Positions 1,779 to 32,614 of a stretch of DNA of 64,000 bases are shown piece by piece. Location: the NCBI GenBank assembly GCA_000004695.1, contig CM000150.2, positions 416,001 to 480,000 of the forward strand, given 5' to 3'. The notes under the pieces are model-generated. The model did no database searches and had not been told where the DNA came from. It saw only the letters and a program-made list of their open reading frames with translations. A program made the translations under genes and the position numbers. How positions within the stretch are numbered: the first letter of the stretch is position 1; each line of letters begins with the position of its first letter. This DNA comes from Dictyostelium discoideum. Lineage: Eukaryota.

Positions 1779-3659
1779 TTTTATAATTTTTTTATTTTTT
1801 TTTATTTTTAATAATATAAAAAAAAAAATATAAATAAATGAATATTTAAATAATTATTTTTAAACTTTTTTTTTTTTTTTTTTTTATTTTTAAAATTAAA
1901 ATTTATATTATTAATAATAATAATAATTAATATAAATTTTATTTTTAATCATTTTTACAATTGTTCAATTAATTTATTTATTTTTTTTACTTTTGGTTAT
2001 TTTTAAAATTAATAATAAAAAAAATAATTATTTTATTGTGTTGCTAATGTAAAAATCAAAAAAATCAAAATTAACAAAATTCACTAACCCATTTCATTTT
2101 TTTGTCCACCCACAATAAATATAAAAACAAAAAATGAAAATTAATTTTGAAAATTATTGTTATTCCCCAATTAGAAATTTTTAAAAAAATATTAATTTTG
2201 AAAATTTAGATTTATTTAATTATCTTTTATTTCATGAATGTATCAGTGTGTGTGTGGTTGTTTACACATAAAAATAAAATTTGAATTTGATTATTACAAT
2301 TTTAATTTTTAAAATAAATTCCAAAATTAATACTATTTTTTTTACTATTCATAACTACAATTTTTTATTTATATATAAAACATATTTAAATTTTATTATA
2401 AAAATGCCAATTTTTAACTTTTTTTTATATTCTTTGTTTTTATTTTTTTTTTTTTTACCATTCATATAAAACAGATAATAGATAAGTCATATATGGAGAT
2501 TTGATCAATAGATTTTTTTTAAAAGTAATTTGAATAATTAGAACTATTTTTAACCTTAACCTAAAACTTTTTTTAATACTGGCAAACTTTTTTATTTTTT
2601 ATTTTTTTTTTTCTGGCCCGAGGAATAAGAAAGATAAAATGTAAAAATGAAAAAAAAAATTGAATAAATATTAAAGTTTTAAGGTGTTCCCAAACAACTT
2701 GAGTCTTACCTGTGGTTAATCTGTTTTTTTCCCTACAACTTTTTTAAATTGGGGTCATTTTGCCTCCAAAAATATTATTATACTTTTGTTTCTCCTCTTC
2801 TTTTTTTATTTTTTTATAAATATAATTTTTTTTTTTTTTTAAAGTTTAGTGATTTTTAAGTTTAACCCATTTATTTTATATATATAAACTAACAACATAA
2901 CAAACAACAAAAATTAAACTTTTATTAATGAAAAATGGATGAGGGCGAAAATTAGTTTTCAGATTGAGAAGAAGAAATTTAAGACATTAGTTTTCTCAAG
3001 GGATAAAGAACAAATATTCAAACAAGAGGTAGTAAATAACTATTTTAATTTTGATTTAAAAAACAACACCCAATCATTGATTTCACAAATTCAATTGATG
3101 AGGATATATTTTCTTATGATTATGATCATGTATCTATCCAATTTTTACCTTCAAAATCAAATGAAATTTTTGATTTAAGAGTTTGGAAAATTGTATTAAA
3201 GTTAGTGCTAATAACACCTTTTTTTTTTTTTTTGAAATTTTTTGATTAATCAAGCTTTTGAATTGGTAACATTCAAATCACATTTATGAAAAATATGTAA
3301 TTTAATTGAGGAATTCAAGGAGAATCTAATGAAATTTCATTATCAAAATATAAAAATGGTAAAATTAATTTTTTCCAATTTTAACTTTTTAAAAAAAACT
3401 ATATAAAAATATCAAATAATAATAATTATAAATAAATAAACAAATAGATTCAATAAATAAATAATTACAAAGAGGTCTCTTCAATGGTACACCACCCTTT
3501 CTAACAGTAGTCAAGTTGATCAGAGAAAGAACAACCATAATCATTAGTAGTAAATAATAAATTGAAATCATTATTATTAGTTAATAATAAAACAATTAAA
3601 AATAATATATAATAATAATTTATAAAATCACTTCAAATAAAATCACGACCTAACAGGCT

Positions 3660-3990
3660 GACTACAATGTTTTTTTTTTTAAAAAAAAAAATTTACCAAA
3701 CCGATTTCAAAGGTTTTTTAAAAAAAATGGACCAAATGGGCAATTATAAGGTTTTTTTTTTTTTTTTAAAAAAAAAAATATATATACCATATTGATCTCA
3801 TAACTACATGGGCTTATGAAAAGGTTTTTTTTTAAAAAAAAAAATAAAATATAAAATATAAAAAATAAAAAAAATATTAAATAAATAAATTAAACCTCAA
3901 TAATTTATTAAAATATTATAATATTGAGAAGATAATTAACCATAAAACAATTATTTTTTAAAAAAAAAAAAAAAAAAAAAATACAATTAT
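3660..3990. repeat. Array of four to five T(9-16)A(8-11) perfect palindromic blocks separated by 25-45 nt unique G/C-containing spacers
   Basis: Direct reading shows ggT11A11 at about 3664, ggT16A11 at about 3753, ggT9A10 at about 3824 and T6A23 at about 3958, each preceded by a short non-AT-rich segment (e.g. 'atcacgacctaacaggctgactacaatg', 'tggaccaaatgggcaattataagg', 'catgggcttatgaaaagg'). Confidence 0.5.
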
Positions 3991-4107: not shown

Positions 4108-5374
4108 TTATAAAATTAAAAATAATAATATTAAAGTTAAATAAATAAAAATATTGAATGAAAAAATTAAAGTTGAAGAAGAATTAATTTGTCTTTGTTG
4201 TTGTTGTTGTTGATTTTCTTGAATAATTAATTCATCACTACCAAAAGTATTTGAATTAATTACTAAATCATTAACATTTAAACCTGAATATAATTTAGTA
4301 TTAATTTTACAAGTGAAATATGAAGTTTTACAAACAATATGATTACCACTACAAGAGATAAAAGAATTTGGTGTTGTGCATGTGATAACTCCATTTGGTT
4401 GATCAGTTCCACATGTTGAACCTTCTTCTGTTATACAATTAGTTTTTCCATTACCAGTACAAACAATTAATTCTGTACTATTTATAAATAAACCATTTTC
4501 ATTTGATTCACAATAAATTGGTGAATTATTTGGTGTTGAAGTTGGTGTTGAAGTTGGTGTTGAAGTTGGTGTTGAAGTTGGTGATTGAGTTGGTGATTGA
4601 GTTGGTGATTGAGTTGGTGATTGAGTTGGTGATTGAGTTGGTGATGGAGTTGGTGATTGAGTTGATGTTTGAGTTGGTGATGGAGTTGGTTTTGGTAATG
4701 GACATGCATATATTGTTTTAATATAAATATCATAAACACACATTGGACTTTCAGTTTGTTTTTCAATTGTAAATTCATATTCTGGACTACATTTATAATA
4801 ATAATTTGAACTTCTATTATTACCATTTGGACAAATTACATTTGGACCACTTTGTGTACCTGAAGCATTATAACTGATTTTAAGGCTATATTCAGATAAT
4901 GGATTGAGTGAAAATTGACCTTTTCCAAAATTACCAATTTCAAAAAAACCTCTTTCAACATGTTGACATGATTGAATATTATCTCCAATACTTGAACAAC
5001 CATTATTTACTGAACAAACTGCAAATGAATACTTTTTTTTTTTTTTTTTTTTTAATTTTTTTTTTTTTAATTTTTTTTTTTTTAATTTTTTTTTTTTTTT
5101 AATTATTAAAAAAATAAATAAATAAATAAAAAAAAGTATAAAAATAAAATTGGTTAAAAAATTTTTTAATATAAAAAAAAAAAAAAAAATAAAAATTAAA
5201 AAATATAATAATATTTACATCAGTATAATGATTTACTCGATACAAGAATGTAGAATTCTTTATTAAAGACATATCAATTATATGAGTTGAATTTTGAAAA
5301 ATACATGTTTCTAATGATGATTTAACTACACTAAGAAATGTAGATAAAATAAATAATAAAATATATTTATTCAT
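4108..5374 (-). CDS. Paralog of the 596-1778 gene: secreted Cys-rich protein, 2 exons (exon1 5219..5374, intron 5032..5218, exon2 4108..5031; about 359 aa). It has (SPTQ)n/(TSTP)n spacer repeats and a hydrophobic C-terminus.
   Basis: ATG at 5374 with signal peptide MNKYILLFILSTFLSVVKS. Donor GAT|GTAAAT at 5219/5218 and acceptor AAAG|TATTCA at 5032/5031 are both phase 0. Exon 2 reads '...YSFAVCSVNNGCSSIGDNIQSCQHVERGFFEIGNFGKGQFSLNPLSEY...ESPMCVYDIYIKTIYACPLPKPTPSPTQ...'. The intron contains (T13AA)4. The C-terminal tail 'LIFSFNIFIYLTLILLFLIL' is hydrophobic. Confidence 0.6.
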
Positions 5375-6803: not shown

Positions 6804-8006
6804 GAAATTAAAGTGGTCCTATTGATTTGGCAACATTTTCTCTCAAATTTATTTAAATTCTAAAACCTCTATAAAAAAAAAAAAAAAAATAATCATAAAA
6901 CTAAAACCTTTAATTTCTTATTTTGCAATTGTAAAATTTAAAAATAAAAAAAAAAAAAACAGCTAAATATTGTTTTATTTTTTTTTTTTTTTTTTTGAAT
7001 TAATCAAAAAAAGTAATATTATATTTTTATAATTTATGAAAATAATAATAATAAAAAAAATTAAAAAAATTAAAAAAAAAAAAAAAATAGATATTTTTTT
7101 AAAAAAAAAAAAAATTAAGTCACCTGACATTCAAAAATTTTTGTTTTGTTATTTTTTTCATTTTAAAAATAGAATAAGCAAATTAGTGAAAAGACCTTTC
7201 AAATAAATCTTTACTTTTTTTTTTTTTTTTTTGAAAATTCATTCTCAACAGCAACAACAACTCTTTTATATTTGCCCGGAATTTAAAAAATTCCCATGAT
7301 CATACATAAGGTCTCTTTTTTTAATTTTTTTATTTTTTAAAAAAAAGAAAATAAAAAAAAATAAAAAAGTAAACCGAAAATTTTTTTACTTTTTTTTTTG
7401 CTCTATTTTTTGTTGTCATAATTGAATCAGAAACTTTTTTTTAGTTATATGACAATATAAATTTATAATTTTAGTATTATCTGTTACCTTTTTTTTTTTT
7501 TTTTTTTTTTTAAAGAAGTTGATTATAACAAAAAAAAAATAAAAAATAAAAAATAAAAAAAAAAAAAATAATAAAAAAAAAACAGTAATAATAAAAAAAA
7601 AAAAACAAATAAACCATAAAAAAAACCAGTGGTTTAATATAAAAAAAAATTTAAAAAAAAAAAAATATGGTTGTTTAATTTAATATTGTGGTGAATTTAT
7701 CCATTTTTTTATTATCAAAAAAAAATTTTTTTATTCACCAGTGTTTTAATTTTATCCAAATTGTTTTTTTTTTTTTTGGGTTATGTAATTATGGCGTAAT
7801 AAAATTGGTGCTGAGTACAATATTATGTAAACAAAAACATAGGTTTTACATAGATTTTTATATTTTTTTTTTTCGAATACAAAAACCGGCCATTTTGATT
7901 TTTTTTTTTTTTTTTTTAATTTTTTTTTTAACAATTTAATTTTACCATTTTTTTTTCTTTTTTTTTTTTTTTTCGTTTGTTGTGTTCCATATATAACTAT
8001 ATAACT

Positions 8007-8066
8007 ATGTCTAACCAAAAGAAAAACGACGTATCTTCGTATGTGTTTTTTTTATATATTAAATAT

Positions 8067-8137
<71 letters not shown>

Positions 8138-8246
8138 AAATAAATATTAATTTAATATTAATAATATAATAATTCTAACATTAAAAATTTAATTTTTAAA
8201 AAAAAAAAAAAATAGATTTGTTAAAGGTTAGTTAAAAAAAGAAAAT

Positions 8247-8323
<77 letters not shown>

Positions 8324-9518
8324 TTGATAAAAAAAAATAAATCAGGTGACTAAACAAAAAAAAACCGAAAATAATAAATAAATCAAATGATCAAAAAAAA
8401 AAAAAAAATTCTAATATATAAATATTTAAAATAATTTTTTACTATTTAATTAGATTCTTTAATCGGTGGTACTGCCGGTGGTGTCTCAAAAACTATTGTT
8501 GCACCAATTGAACGTGTTAAATTATTATTACAAGTTCAATCTGCTTCAACTCAAATTGCTGCTGATAAACAATACAAAGGTATCGTCGATTGTTTTGTTA
8601 GAGTTTCAAAAGAACAAGGTGTCATCTCATTATGGAGAGGTAATTTAGCCAATGTTATTAGATATTTCCCAACTCAAGCTCTTAACTTTGCCTTCAAAGA
8701 TAAATACAAGAAATTCTTCGTCAGACACACTGCTAAAGAAAACCCAACCAAATTTTTCATTGGTAATTTATTATCTGGTGGTGCTGCTGGTGCAACCTCA
8801 TTACTCTTTGTTTACCCATTAGATTTTGCCCGTACTCGTTTAGCTGCTGATGTTGGTACTGGTTCAGCTCGTCAATTCACTGGTTTAGGTAACTGTATCT
8901 CTTCAATCTACAAGAGAGACGGTTTAATCGGTTTATACCGTGGTTTTGGTGTATCTGTCGGAGGTATCTTTGTCTACAGAGCTGCTTTCTTTGGTGGTTA
9001 CGATACTGCTAAAGGAATTTTATTAGGTGAAAACAACAAGAAAGCTTCATTCTGGGCTTCATGGGGTATCGCACAAGTTGTCACTACCATCGCTGGTGTA
9101 GTCAGCTACCCATTCGATACTGTTCGTAGAAGAATGATGATGCAAGCCGGTCGTGCTGATATTCTTTATTCAAGTACCTATATGACTATTTAACTACTAT
9201 TTCATTTCACTTTCACTCTACCTATCCAATTCACTATTTGTTTTTGTACTTTCTCATATAATTTTTTTTTCTCTCTCTCATCGGCCTCCTCTGTCCTTCT
9301 CATATAAATATTTTAATTGTATATTAATATAATCTTTTTTTTAATTTATAGGCACTTGGGATTGTTGGGTAAAGATTGCCACCCGTGAAGGTCCAACTGC
9401 CTTCTTCAAAGGTGCTTTATCAAATGCCATCAGAGGTTCAGGTGGTGCTTTAGTTTTAGTTATTTATGATGAAATCCAAAAACTTATGGGTTTTGAAGGT
9501 GGTGTTGGTTCTGAATAA
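8007..9518 (+). CDS. ancA: Mitochondrial ADP/ATP carrier (ADP/ATP translocase), 4 exons: 8007..8038, micro-exon 8216..8226 (11 nt), 8454..9173, 9352..9518; 309 aa
   Basis: The translation carries the mitochondrial-carrier signatures and ANT-specific motifs: '...[16 protein letters not shown]...[11 protein letters not shown]...[17 protein letters not shown]...[12 protein letters not shown]...[17 protein letters not shown]' in exon 3 and '[43 protein letters not shown]...GGVGSE*' in exon 4. Exon 1 is ATG..'[10 protein letters not shown]' ending in phase 2 at the GTATGT donor (8039). The only way to keep frame into exon 3 (acceptor TAG at 8451-8453) is through the 11-nt micro-exon 'ATTTGTTAAAG', flanked by TAG| and |GTTAGT. 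That gives N-terminus [24 protein letters not shown]. Intron 3 (9174-9351) runs GTACCT...TATAG. Confidence 0.9.
8074..8133. repeat. Poly(A) homopolymer of about 60 nt inside ancA intron 1
   Basis: Uninterrupted A run read directly in the sequence. Confidence 0.9.
8250..8319. repeat. (TAA)n microsatellite of about 23 units inside ancA intron 2
   Basis: Direct reading of 'taataataataa...' at 8250-8319. Confidence 0.9.
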
Positions 9519-9716
9519 GAAAATCCGCAAGAAAAAAAACAGGATTTTAACTAAAAAAAAAAACATACATGAAATATAAAATAAAACTTTTTAAAAAAAA
9601 AATACTATAAAAAAAACTATCTTTAATTTTGATAATTCTCTTTTTTTTTTGATTTTGTTATATTTTTATAATTACTGTGTGGTAATATTCCCTCCATATT
9701 CCGATCGATTTATTTT

Positions 9717-9850
9717 ATTTTTTTCGTAGAAGAATGATGATGAAAGCCGGTCTTGCTGATATACTTTATTCAAGTACCTATATGACTATTTAACTACTAT
9801 TTCATTTCACTTTCACTCCGTCTGTCCTATTCACCATTTGTTTTTGCACT
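9717..9850 (+). repeat. Degenerate duplicate of the ancA exon3/intron3 junction (matches 9124-9262), lying about 200 bp downstream of the ancA stop
   Basis: 9721-9850 'cgtagaagaatgatgatgaaagccggtcttgctgatatactttattcaagtacctatatgactatttaactactatttcatttcactttcactccgtctgtcctattcaccatttgtttttgcactttatcttat' aligns with 9124-9262 at roughly 90% identity. It includes the [17 protein letters not shown] coding end and the GTACCT intron start, with scattered substitutions. Confidence 0.8.
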
Positions 9851-10061
9851 TTATCTTATAAATTTAAAATAAATAATAATGCAATTTTTTTTATTTTTTT
9901 ATTTTGAAATTTCATTTAATTGTTTTAGTGTATGATTTTATTTGTTCGTGTAATCATTTTATTAATGCATTGAAATATTTAAATGATAAAATAATTAAAC
10001 TAATATTTATATTATTGAATTGGCTTGGGTAAGTGAAAAAACTATAATTACTATTATTATT

Positions 10062-10082: not shown

Positions 10083-10113
<31 letters not shown>

Positions 10114-11479
10114 AACGGACATGCATTTTTGGATGATGCATAGATTGTTTGATTGCAAATGGAGTTATTAACAGTGGTTAAGACGGTGAATTCAGTATTG
10201 GAGCATCTAATATATACCTTTATCTCTGGTTTGGTTGTACAAATGGTAGGGGTAGATGATGAATTAAATGAAATTAAAATATTGTTTGATGTGTTACTAC
10301 TTGCAATAAATGGTACTTTGGATACTGTAGGTTTATCAAGGAATGGAATGGTTGTTTTTCCAAGTCCTAAAATAAGACAACCATAATACTTTCCACTTAA
10401 TCTTGAGAATTTATTACATACATCAACAGTACCACCGAAATTGAAAAGGAATCTATTGGGTTCTAGAGCTGACGAATATGGATTTGATGATGATGTTCTT
10501 TAATAATTTTTTTTTTTTATCAGTAAAATAAAATCTATAAAAGAAAATAATAATAATAATAATAATAAAATACATACAATTTCAATGATCTTAAATCATA
10601 TTGATTGCCACCAAATAAGTATTTGTTTTCAATTGGACAGGCAAATTTAGTGGAGATTTGTTGGATACCTTGTACCATTGACTGAAACACGTTATTGAAT
10701 TGGACCCTCACCAGCTGTAGCAGTACATAAAGTTGATGTTTCACAAAGACTAAAATAAAAAATGTTGCTACCATTTGTTGTAGTATATTGTGATGGTCCT
10801 AAAACACTATTGAGATTAATTAATTAATTTAATTTTTTAAAAATATAAAATAAATAGGTTAGATAATAAAATAATGATAAATTAAAATAAAAATAAAATA
10901 AAAGAATACATACTTTGAAGTTGGTGATAAATCGAAAAATCTATTTTTAGAATCTTGGAAAACACATCTATTTTTAGAATCTTTAGTATGTGGACTATCC
11001 ACTCTAGCATTTTGAATGAAATCATAGTGGTTTGTATCAGAGTATGTATAAACATAATTGTAAAGACTATAAAATGGAATGGTTTTTGGATTTCCAACTT
11101 CTACAGTTAATAATGATTGAATAGAATTAACTTGGTCTTCCAATACACCAATCGAAGCACGAGAGGATATATCGGTTGTCTTTGATTGAGCAGAGGTTGA
11201 ATTTGATTCGAGTGATGATGTTTTTGGTGCAATGAATTGGAAATTACTTTCAAAGAAACACAAATTATTTGAATTTAATGATTGATAAATCATTGGTTTT
11301 TTATCATTATTGGCTGCATTTAATAACTCTATGAAATATGTTTTGAAATCATAAACATTTTCTTTATTACTTAACACATCAATTAAAAATGATACACTTG
11401 ATTCTTTAAAACCTTCTAATTCATATAAATCATAAAAGAATGATGTTATTGAAGAGCTGTAATATGATTGAACATTCAA
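10062..11479 (-). CDS. Ill-defined minus-strand gene or gene remnant: a long open frame at 10859-11479 with no ATG, and an open terminal-exon-like frame at about 10062-10498 ending in a hydrophobic tail (…ACPFYLFIYLFIYLFIIL*). The structure is not resolved.
   Basis: A 206-codon stop-free frame (10859-11479) has Dictyostelium-like composition, ends at a GTATGT donor (10913) and begins just after an in-frame TAA with only a TTG start. A second stop-free frame of about 145 codons (about 10062-10498) reads '...CNKFSRLSGKYYGCLILGLGKTTIPFLDKPTVSKVPFIASS...ICTTKPEIKVYIRCSNTEFTVLTTVNNSICNQ...'. I could not connect these in frame with canonical splice sites. Confidence 0.3.
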
Positions 11480-11852: not shown

Positions 11853-13187
11853 ATGAAATATTTGGTTACTATATTTTTATTATTTATTTTGTTCTCAATA
11901 ATTAAATGTCAACCTCCAAGATGTTTATACAGTGATATTTATGCAAAATCACCACACCCAAACTTAAAACCCTCTGTAAATTATGTTAATTGGTGGATTT
12001 ATGAACATTTTAATGATGCTGGTTATGGTGGTTCATCTTTTTATACAGATAGTAATTTAAAGGACCTAAATGAAAAAATTTTTGAATTGAGCGATTATAA
12101 TATGAGAGATCAAAACCAGGTATCTCCAATTACTCAAACATTCAGTCAAGTGAATGATCTTCTATTTTCAAGTATTTCTTACAATAATGCTTTTGATGAC
12201 GATTACTCAAAAGGAAGTGCACATGAAAAAGGATTTTTTATTTGGAACGAACAAGGTGGTATTCATGTTATTCATAGTATTCCAAAAACACCTCAAAAAA
12301 TGAATGATTTCTTTTTACATACCTCCAAAGATAATTATTTACAACATTCAATTTGTATTACATTGTCACAAGCTGAATTAGATATTATTCCTAAATATTT
12401 GATTTATACCAACCCTGCAATTGCAACAATAAATTCTAAAAAGATTACTGGTTCAATCATAAGTTCTTTAACAGAAGAAAGTATAACAGGTGTTAATAAT
12501 GTTAACAAAAACGATACATTTGATACAGTAACAGATATTGAAATTGGAGATACGGAACAGTTTACAGAAATCGATACAATTATTCAGGATAATTTTATTG
12601 TAGGTCCAACTCTCCCAAGAATTATTAAAATTCTACAATGGGCTAAATTGGTATGTATAATTATTTTTATTATTGTTTATTTTATAGTTGTAAATTATAC
12701 TCACTCAAATTATACCACTTTTTGTATTTCCCAGGCTAATCATGTCGCTGGAAATATTGATTTTTCATCAGATCCAAATTTTCCAAGCTATCATTATTAT
12801 AGAGCAAAGCAACATTCATTTGGTGAATACTTTGTTCAAACTCCAATACCAGAAAAGAAAAATATTATTGCTGGATCCTCTCAGTATAACTTGGCAAGAA
12901 TGAATAACATTGAAATTTTATGGCAATACATCGGTAAATATTACGGTAGTATTTCAAAATGGATGTCTCAAACAATGACTACAAATAAAGGATTTGCTAA
13001 TAATGTAGTTACTGGTACAACTTTCTCATTAACATTTAGGCTCAATTATCCATTCCTAAATAACCATCAACAAAGAAGTGCCTCAAAAGATCATTCAAAG
13101 TTCATGTATGGTACCAGTAACAATGGTCAACAAAAAATCTTTTGTATAGGTGGTTTAAATTGGCAAAGAGCTCAAGGTAGGATAAAA

Positions 13188-13266
<79 letters not shown>

Positions 13267-14458
13267 TATATATTATATATTATATATTATATTATTTATT
13301 ATTTATTATTACTAATTAATCGTTAATTTGAATATTTTTATTGATACAATACACTTCATAATTAGAATCAAGAGGAGGGGCAGCTTTTTGCATGAATGGT
13401 ATTGGTTATTTAGTTGATTATATGGAAAGACATGTATCATGGACAAGAAAAGGAATAGCCCAAAATCAAGTAAAATCTGGTGTCCCACAATCAACAGTAG
13501 GAACTGAAATAGACTTTTCTTGGATAAAGGATCAATTGAACATCCAAAATCTAGATATTCCCATGGGATTCGAAATTTTAATACCAACAACACAAAATCC
13601 ACTTCCAAAAAGAGTTATTGAACCAGCACAATCAAATTATAAAACCAAAAATGCTCCACTCCTTGTTGAACCTGTGCAGACACCATTAGGTGCATTAGTA
13701 GGTTATAAAACTGAGGCAATTTCAATTGATGTTTTCCCAAGTGTAAAAGATAAAGTACATATATGTCTACAATCATCCCAATGTCCGTATGAATTATCAG
13801 CTAAATCTAATATCATTTCAAATATTAATCTTATTGTTACTCCTTATCAATTAAACTCAGAATCAGAACCTGTTATGACAATTTCCTCCAATGCAAACCC
13901 TGCTATTTCTGTTTCACAAGTATTGAAGAATAATTATTTCTCTTCTATGGCCACTGAAAAAATAATTCAACTAAATGGTAATAATTTTGGAGTTTATTTA
14001 CAAAAGACTCAACAAACTCTAGGTGATTTTAAATTTAAATTTCCACAATCAAGTATCAATACCCCTTGTACTATTTCACCAATAGGTAGTAATATTATTT
14101 CAATTATGTTTCATGAAACTTGTGTTGATCAACTTATATTTTGCTTATTTAGTCATTTCCACATGTATTCAATTAATAATATACCAGTGTTTATGGTAGA
14201 TGACCAAGCTTCATTTTATAATGATGTTACCCAAATTCTTGTAAGATAATATTCAGTTACAAATATAAAATGCACAAAACTTTTTGATCATTACATTCTA
14301 ATACCATTATTAATTTTTTTAAATAGAATGAATTCTTTCCAAACATTCCAGATATCAGTAGATGTGTTGAACAACCACCTTCGCCTGGAACTGCAATGAC
14401 TGATAACGATGAAATTGATGAATTGATGGGATCTCAGGCCATGACTGATGAAATTTAA
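11853..14458 (+). CDS. Deoxyribonuclease II (DNase II) family protein with a long C-terminal extension. Four exons: 11853..12650, 12735..13176, 13375..14240, 14327..14458.
   Basis: N-terminal signal peptide (MKYLVTIFLLFILFSIIKC). The first DNase II catalytic motif 'SAHEKGFFIWNEQGGIHVIHSIPKTP' corresponds to human '[25 protein letters not shown]'. The second motif 'SASKDHSKFMYG...GGLNWQRAQG|GAAFC' corresponds to human 'EDHSKW...QRGGGTLC'. Splice sites: GTATGT(12651)..CAG(12734), phase 0, an in-frame 84-nt intron. GTAGG(13177)..AG(13374), phase 1, through an (ATT)n tract. GTAAGA(14241)..AATAG(14326), phase 0. The last exon ends in an acidic tail 'DNDEIDELMGSQAMTDEI*'. Confidence 0.7.
13186..13262. 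repeat. (ATT)n microsatellite of about 25 units inside intron 2 of the DNase II-like gene. It produces the spurious poly-Tyr tail of the six-frame ORF 11853..13319.
   Basis: Direct reading. Confidence 0.9.
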
Positions 14459-32541: not shown

Positions 32542-32614
32542 GCCCAGATAGCTCAGTCGGTAAAGCGCAAGGCTTTTAACCTTGTGGTCGGGGGTTCGAG
32601 CCCCCCTTCTAAAG
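32542..32614 (+). tRNA. tRNA-Lys(UUU)-like sequence with a non-pairing acceptor stem (possible tRNA pseudogene or truncated tRNA gene)
   Basis: 'GCCCAGA TA GCTC AGTCGGTA AAGC G CAAGG CTTTTAA CCTTG TGGTC GGGGG TTCGAGC CCCCC TTCTAAA G' has a near-canonical D-arm, a perfect 5-bp anticodon stem, a 7-nt loop with anticodon UUU, a 5-nt variable loop and a perfect T-arm (GGGGG/TTCGAGC/CCCCC). The 3' acceptor half 'TTCTAAA' is not complementary to 5' 'GCCCAGA': only 1-2 of 7 positions can pair. Confidence 0.5.

Follow-up and report, generated by a model that had tools for sequence, protein, structure and literature searches.

The 64,000-nt stretch of Dictyostelium discoideum DNA analyzed here (the window) carries, at positions 8007-9518 of its plus strand, ancA, the nuclear gene for the mitochondrial ADP/ATP carrier (AAC or ANT). 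The coding sequence (CDS) is distributed over four exons that join to 930 nt and 309 codons, and the second of these, 8216-8226, is the subject of this report. It comprises 11 nt, which supply the third base of Ser11, the codons of Phe12, Val13 and Lys14, and the first base of Asp15. As an internal segment of no more than 30 nt that is bounded by AG and GT (TAG/ATTTGTTAAAG/GTTAGT, with slashes at the exon borders), it falls within the definition of a micro-exon. The 16-mer TAGATTTGTTAAAGGT is present in a single copy in the 64-kb window, compared with 0.01 expected. This structure had been proposed in a sequence-only reading of the window, whose exon, donor and acceptor coordinates all agree with the DNA. 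Its count of a (TAA)23 repeat in the second intron was likewise correct, whereas the homopolymer in the first intron, counted there as A60, is A61.

The ancA product and its 11-nt exon

An exact-sequence look-up showed that the spliced product of 309 amino acids is identical, residue for residue, to O97470 (ADT_DICDI), XP_647166.1 and EAL73180.1, which are recorded as ADP/ATP translocase of D. discoideum AX4. The prediction of an ANT-like protein of this length was thus correct, and both the translation and the identity to O97470 bear out that the 11-nt segment adds S-F-V-K and completes D; the comparison with the curated protein, which had been suggested as a check, finds SFVK in place. Given this identity, the 11-nt exon must already be part of the AX4 gene model.

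The family assignment was assessed by several sequence comparisons. A Pfam hmmscan search detected Mito_carr (PF00153) with E = 1.5e-71 in three stretches, the first of them covering residues 10-106, which corresponds to the three tandem repeats of about 100 residues each that characterize the SLC25 family and its AAC/ANT members. The AAC-specific motif RRRMMM is present in the translation and is encoded in exon 3. In HMMER searches bovine AAC1 (1okc) matched over residues 9-299 with E = 8.4e-129, and the fungal AACs 6gci, 4c9g and 4c9j matched at E values of about 1e-86. The alignment with 1okc places S11-F12-V13-K14-D15 of the ancA product opposite bovine S6-F7-L8-K9-D10, and the S-F-V-K contributed by the micro-exon falls where the first Mito_carr repeat starts, its Pfam match beginning at residue 10. 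By every sequence criterion that we tested, the product is thereby classed as a member of the ADP/ATP carrier family. The ancA cDNA and gene were reportedly described by Bof and co-workers in 1999 (Eur J Biochem 259:795), who are also said to have reported ADP/ATP exchange by the D. discoideum protein and its inhibition by carboxyatractyloside or bongkrekic acid. We take ancA to be highly expressed and to be the sole gene for an ADP/ATP carrier in an organism that is strictly aerobic.

The sequence-only reading had argued for the exon from the reading frame. To evaluate this argument, all GT/AG pairings were enumerated between 8010 and 8470, an interval containing 10 GT and 7 AG dinucleotides. 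As claimed, no single donor/acceptor pairing keeps the ANT frame (0 of 31 single GT-AG introns). Exon 3 requires one preceding base in order to read D-S-L-I-G-G, and the TAG at 8451-8453, named as its only available acceptor, indeed holds the sole AG (8452-8453) between 8346 and 8470. Direct joining of 8038 to 8454, with the micro-exon skipped, shifts the frame and leads to a 29-residue product with a stop at codon 30. The further claim that the frame is restored by the 11-mer is correct as far as it goes, but the solution is not unique: 10 of the 48 two-intron GT-AG combinations are open and in frame, the 11-mer among them, and the others include 4-nt exons (ATTT, GTTA) as well as exons of 104 and 119 nt that end in CAG/GTGACT and encode poly-Asn. 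The frame arithmetic therefore demonstrates the need for some internal exon, not which one; it is the transcript, homology and conservation evidence that picks out the 11-mer.

The transcript evidence is a 975-nt Logan contig (L001, run SRR17156088), which contains the whole 930-nt CDS exactly and without introns, flanked by 2 nt of 5' untranslated region (UTR) and 43 nt of 3' UTR. The accession of this run did not turn up in any paper of the literature searched. It maps with 100% identity to 8005-8038, 8216-8226, 8454-9173 and 9352-9561, with all three introns out, and because they are removed precisely, the contig must derive from spliced RNA. The alignment of cDNA, which had also been proposed as a check, thus yields the joins 8038/8216-8226/8454, and the 11 bases are present in mature mRNA, joined to both neighboring exons. 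The inclusion form is the only one found, and it comes from one transcript contig. Taking the transcript together with the homology and conservation described below, we hold with high confidence that 8216-8226 is a genuine and apparently constitutive 11-nt internal coding exon of ancA.

Table 1. Features of the ancA region (window coordinates), of the D. purpureum paralogue B locus (contig L010) and of the sequence downstream of ancA. 5'SS and 3'SS, 5' and 3' splice sites; L001, the spliced transcript contig; TRF, the repeat annotation for the TAA tract.
Feature	Position	Strand	Description
ancA exon 1	8007-8038	+	32 nt, ATGTCTAACCAAAAGAAAAACGACGTATCTTC; ATG 8007-8009; ends at codon 11 position 2 (phase 2); L001 3-34, 100%
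Intron 1	8039-8215	+	177 nt, 3% G+C; GTATGT 8039-8044; TAG 8213-8215; missing from L001
Intron 1 filler	8074-8134	+	A61 homopolymer
Intron 1 branch-point-like TTCTAAC	8173-8179	+	putative branch A8178, 37 nt from 3' end
Micro-exon	8216-8226	+	11 nt, ATTTGTTAAAG; L001 35-45
Intron 2	8227-8453	+	227 nt, 9% G+C; GTTAGT 8227-8232; TAG 8451-8453; missing from L001
Intron 2 filler	8251-8319	+	(TAA)23; TRF: AAT x23.7 at 8249-8319
Intron 2 branch-point-like TTCTAAT	8409-8415	+	putative branch A8414, 39 nt from 3' end
ancA exon 3	8454-9173	+	720 nt, begins ATTCTTTAATCGGTGG; bulk of the three Mito_carr repeats; L001 from 46 onward
Intron 3	9174-9351	+	178 nt, phase 1; 5'SS GTACCT, 3'SS TAG
ancA exon 4	9352-9518	+	stop TAA 9516-9518; 3' UTR reaches at least 9561 (L001)
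Paralogue B, 11-nt reading	L010 1630-1640 (locus 1501-1714)		donors GTATGT 1539, GTATTT 1641; predicted product ...LTSFVKNSLVGG
Paralogue B, public model	L010 1630-1633		4-nt exon ATTT; donors TAT/GTTTTT, ATTT/GTTAAA; ...LTSYIYSLVGG
Convergent multi-exon gene	10083-11479	-	open segments 11479-10862, 10798-10538, 10499-10083; downstream of ancA
488-aa open reading frame	11853-13319	+	about 29 tyrosines in a row at its end

Conservation of the exon and recognition of its flanking introns

The orthologous exon-intron structures of other dictyostelids were rebuilt by exact spliced matching of each annotated protein to its DNA. Alignments anchored on the exon were used in place of a four-species alignment of the whole region, in which the unequal lengths of the low-complexity introns had put the micro-exon in the wrong position. 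The string TAG/ATTTGTTAAAG/GTTAGTT recurs without change in L011, from a second D. discoideum strain, and in D. cf. discoideum (L012), D. citrinum (L008) and D. dimigraforme (L009). D. firmibasis (L003) has TAG/TTTCATTAAAG/GTTAGTT, with two synonymous changes and one V to I replacement relative to AX4, a pattern of substitution that is the one expected of coding DNA. Six assemblies of the D. discoideum clade retain the micro-exon, as does, judged by homology, paralogue B of D. purpureum. In the D. purpureum orthologue (A, L002; 94% protein identity), intron 1 has the same position and phase and intron 2 is missing; the sequence reads ...AATAG/TTTTGTTAAAGATTCATTAATTGG, with the 11 bases fused to the start of exon 3. 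Intron 1 and intron 2 are both lacking from the ANT genes of P. violaceum, T. lacteum and A. subglobosum, whose N-terminal coding sequence is continuous. The peptide F-[VIL]-K-D-S-L-I-G-G occurs in most of the dictyostelid ANTs retrieved, the exceptions being D. purpureum B (FVKNSLVGG) and one further sequence (FAMDSLAGG).

D. purpureum paralogue B (P0054, DICPUDRAFT_86546; L010, GL870977.1) is a divergent ANT with 73% identity. Its DNA reads TC/GTATGT...TAG/ATTTGTTAAAA/GTATTT...TAG/ATTCT, with introns 1 and 2 at the AX4 positions and in the AX4 phases and an 11-mer nearly identical to that of AX4. The public model of this gene has a 4-nt exon at the same place (Table 1). Homology and donor quality favor the 11-nt reading, which gives SFVKNSLVGG, and the public model is probably wrong; an exact look-up of the full-length corrected protein in the protein collection returned no entry. 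The implausible 4-nt exon agrees with the earlier expectation that gene finders working without similarity would miss such an exon, an expectation that fails for five recent Dictyostelium annotations, all of them correct.

The introns that flank the micro-exon are poor in everything but A and T. Intron 1 has six G/C bases in 177 nt, three of which lie at the 5' splice site (G8039, G8043, G8045), two in the branch-point-like motif (C8175, C8179) and one in the terminal AG (G8215), with none elsewhere. The 415-nt interval 8039-8453 contains 7 GT and 6 AG in total, and decoy splice sites are therefore scarce. A single CTAAY lies 23-60 nt from the 3' end of each flanking intron in AX4, D. citrinum, D. 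dimigraforme and D. firmibasis, and intron 1 of the second D. discoideum strain has two. The context of this motif is TTCTAAY in all six clade assemblies, and in the 3' portions of both introns TCTAAY alone forms an island that remains in register among the clade members. The best D. discoideum branch-point motif is ACTAAT / WCTAAT / WCTAAY, found in about 32% of introns (PMC2483917). At 177 and 227 nt, the two introns have lengths usual for D. discoideum, whose row in a published table gives 89.13 / 103 / 142.85, figures that we take to be %AT, median length and mean length, respectively (PMC2483917). Among 61 species, D. discoideum has the smallest "information deficit" for the recognition of short introns (PMC3033335). 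U12 splicing is reported to be absent from Dictyostelium (PMC2846911), and the donors of the two introns, GTATGTGT and GTTAGTTA, are not of the U12 type [AG]TATCCTT; termini and branch motifs are those of U2-type introns.

Comparison of AX4 with the second strain shows how freely the filler tracts change. The tracts measure A61 and (TAA)23 in the AX4 window (8074-8134 and 8251-8319) and A17 and (TAA)4 in L011 (2533-2897), whose introns are 161 and 193 nt long, and the micro-exon, splice sites and branch motifs are unchanged between the two. Tract lengths differ again in the other species. Variation of the A and TAA tracts around an unchanged exon argues against a role of the tracts in exon recognition. 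The motif AAATCAAATGATC in intron 2 (8380-8392) was also considered as a signal and rejected, with one occurrence found in the window against 1.0 expected and a variable distance from the splice signals. The same motif is seen in intron 2 of L008, L009, L011 and L012 and, in D. firmibasis (L003), two times in intron 1; this recurrence is probably residual neutral similarity.

These observations are consistent with a simple route of splicing, in which introns 1 and 2 would behave as short U2-type GT-AG introns, each recognized on its own by intron definition through pairing, across the intron, of its 5' splice site, TCTAAY branch motif and TAG. We adopt intron definition because exons so small cannot be bridged by exon definition. 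The two introns would be removed one after the other, with the micro-exon first fused to one of its neighboring exons; such sequential removal is probable because two spliceosomes cannot sit 11 nt apart, and intron definition with sequential removal has been proposed for micro-exons elsewhere (PMC8378409, PMC4674806). The A61 and (TAA)23 tracts would be neutral, length-unstable filler with almost no G/C and hence with few competing signals, so that the low-complexity sequence probably makes the splice signals stand out instead of obscuring them. The description of this exon as a demanding splicing problem was accordingly overstated: the introns are ordinary short ones, with canonical ends, a branch motif each and few decoys. 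Two points weigh against the proposed route, namely that the branch points are placed by motif and not by mapping, and that the order of removal is taken by analogy from the literature on other organisms.

Several other explanations of the locus were weighed. The frame would also be kept, with GT-AG borders, by another internal exon of 104 nt (8242-8345), 119 nt (8227-8345) or 4 nt (ATTT at 8216-8219, GTTA at 8227-8230). The poly-Asn insert encoded by the two longer candidates is of a kind common in Dictyostelium proteins, and the ATTT solution is the one actually annotated for the D. purpureum paralogue. However, it is precisely the 11-mer that is found in L001 and SFVK that stands in the curated protein, and conservation of F-[VIL]-K-D extends from dictyostelids as far as cattle; moreover, the donors GTTAAA and GTTTTT are poor, and the TAA tract shrinks to 4 units in the other strain, which is unexpected for the coding sequence of a protein that is 98-99% conserved. 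An alternative internal exon as the main isoform is refuted by these data, and use of any such exon is hardly credible. The same transcript bears on the proposal that no micro-exon exists and that the genome sequence contains a frameshift error close to the donor of exon 1 or the acceptor of exon 3. The long homopolymers and microsatellites nearby are prone to sequencing error, yet six independent clade assemblies agree on TC/GTATGT, on the 11-mer and on the phase of exon 3, and the cDNA-like contig contains the 11 nt; this reading, too, is refuted, and we consider an error of this kind next to impossible.

If 8216-8226 is accepted as an exon, it could still be a regulated switch, in which skipping leads to the stop at codon 30 and to mRNA decay, and in which the A and TAA tracts tune inclusion and hence ANT dosage. 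The premature stop that skipping produces, the strong differences in tract length between strains and the suitability of micro-exons whose length is not a multiple of three (non-3n) as natural on/off devices all fit this idea. On the other hand, no skipped transcript was seen (one contig was retrieved), the exon, splice sites and branch motifs are invariant while the tracts vary freely, and a switch would sit oddly in what we presume to be the only, highly expressed ADP/ATP carrier gene of a strict aerobe. We judge such regulation improbable. A contribution of pre-mRNA structure that loops out the introns is very improbable. The candidate pairing joins CTAACC in exon 1 (8011-8016) with GGTTAG (8226-8231), and this 6-bp helix appears, along with a second helix that closes intron 2, in both the minimum-free-energy and the centroid folds of 8007-8480. 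The fold is no stabler than those of shuffled sequences (z = -1.65; 5 of 100 shuffles did as well), and the helix between exon 1 and the second donor is not conserved, being broken in D. citrinum and D. firmibasis by GCC for AAC (CTGCCC) with no compensating change in GGTTAG. A structural assist was rejected on these two grounds.

Origin of the exon and sequences around ancA

The distribution of introns 1 and 2 among the dictyostelids suggests, as the most economical history, a sequence of gain, duplication and loss. Both introns would have entered the gene, 11 nt apart, in an ancestor of the D. discoideum / D. purpureum group; the ANT gene would then have been duplicated on the D. purpureum side, and intron 2 would later have been lost precisely from the D. 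purpureum orthologue. A lineage-specific origin of the micro-exon by two insertions is suggested because both flanking introns are missing from the three outgroup dictyostelids. The insertion site of intron 2 (AAAG/AT) fits the proto-splice site MAG/R, and that of intron 1 (TC/T) does not. The contending history has an ancient paralogue with ancient introns that were lost three or more times. It gains from the neighbor-joining tree, in which paralogue B forms a long branch close to the dictyostelid base, at a position that is unreliable, and the polarity of gain versus loss hinges on paralogue B being a young, fast-evolving duplicate; both points tell against the history of recent gain.

The ANT genes of this group differ widely in structure. 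Ten distinct intron positions were found among nine dictyostelid ANT genes, whose proteins are mostly 84-99% identical, with paralogue B as the exception at 69-74%. In ancA of D. dimigraforme (L009), the protein of which is 99% identical to that of D. discoideum, two private introns (3549-3666 and 3815-3886) follow CDS nt 553 and 701, and intron 3 (nt 763) is missing. Intron turnover, as judged from these gene structures, is unusually fast for so conserved a gene. We see an even chance that the micro-exon is young, the product of a double intron gain with one precise later loss, and that it lies in an ancA that is a hotspot of intron turnover. The ANT gene of P. violaceum has a 19-nt mini-exon of its own, ACCATTGTCGCCCCAATTG (L004 1729-1747), which encodes T-I-V-A-P-I and is flanked by introns of 150 and 83 nt at positions that have no introns in the other dictyostelids examined.

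About 200 nt past the ancA stop, window positions 9723-9865 are a 143-nt direct copy of 9123-9265, with 91% identity, which comprises the last 51 nt of exon 3 and the first 92 nt of intron 3. Similar copies are present downstream of the gene in L011 (4210-4349), D. cf. discoideum (L012 4242-4334), D. citrinum (L008, approximately 4464-4625, about 97% identical to its own original) and T. lacteum (L005, approximately 3054-3170, about 98%); none was found in the flanks retrieved for D. firmibasis, D. dimigraforme, D. purpureum, P. violaceum and A. subglobosum. All of the copies begin within a few bases of the D-T-V codons, and each matches the original of its own species, including species-specific intron sequence, which implies that gene conversion is ongoing or that duplication has recurred between the same endpoints. 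Two-thirds of the changes (2/3) in the D. discoideum copy are non-synonymous, and this copy is therefore not under coding constraint. If ancA is a hotspot of intron turnover, this might be connected with the concertedly evolving partial copy. The copy lies about 215 nt beyond the stop of the convergent minus-strand gene, and antisense read-through RNA over it is conceivable from this arrangement. The deposited ancA models of D. citrinum (P0004, 340 amino acids) and D. cf. discoideum (P0005, 407 amino acids) extend past the C-terminus ...GGVGSE, the former by splicing into the downstream partial copy, and both look like over-extended predictions.

Two further features of the window lie apart from ancA. 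The tyrosine run at the end of the 488-aa open reading frame (Table 1) probably arises because the frame continues beyond the real end of the exon into a TAT microsatellite. At 32548-32607 on the plus strand, an Rfam tRNA match of 48.4 bits covers model positions 7-64 of 71; ARAGORN called no tRNA anywhere in the window, and the match may mark a truncated or degenerate tRNA gene.

Significance and comparison with known micro-exons

The 11-nt exon is already known in the sense that the curated protein and the AX4 gene model contain it, and the impact of the present results on the reference annotation is consequently small. The N-terminus of DICPUDRAFT_86546 probably needs correction, from the 4-nt exon and SYIY to the 11-nt exon and SFVKN. 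In the literature searched we found no paper discussing micro-exons in Dictyostelium, nor did we find there the comparative history of ancA, the anatomy of its branch points and G/C islands or the polymorphism of its filler tracts; the proposed birth of the exon by double intron gain, the G/C-island anatomy, the probable D. purpureum mis-annotation and the side observations are possibly new. The gene is a teaching example of how an exon too small for exon definition can be constitutive, here in a gene that is probably highly expressed and essential, when its introns are short and the splice signals are their sole islands outside A and T. The comparative data show in addition that the flanking introns can gain and lose length in their long A and TAA tracts with no effect on the exon. 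If the proposed origin is true, ancA would offer a natural and datable system for the birth of introns and micro-exons in an extremely AT-rich genome.

Set beside the micro-exons of other organisms, the exon of ancA resembles the constitutive ones of plants and of human MPC1 and differs from the regulated neuronal ones of animals. The 9-nt exon of potato invertase and the 1-nt exon of Arabidopsis APC11 (PMC4674806) are, like that of ancA, coding and constitutive (in ancA apparently so), with short AT/U-rich introns, and the handling proposed for them is the one proposed here, intron definition with removal of the introns one after the other. They belong to another lineage and to other genes, and they were tested by mutagenesis, whereas the mechanism in ancA is inferred. 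The 4-bp micro-exon of human MPC1 (PMC9929638) resembles that of ancA in being constitutive (in ancA apparently so) and non-3n, in residing in a gene for a transporter of the mitochondrial inner membrane and in that its skipping would shift the frame; it differs in that MPC is not of the SLC25 family, in its long mammalian introns and in its need for strong exon-definition regions. The neuronal micro-exons of animals that depend on PRP-40/PRPF40A (PMC8378409) measure 27 nt or less and are likewise too small for exon definition, with rescue by intron definition proposed. They are alternative, tissue-specific, mostly 3n and set among long introns, in contrast to the 11 nt of ancA, which are apparently constitutive and lie between introns of 177 and 227 nt.

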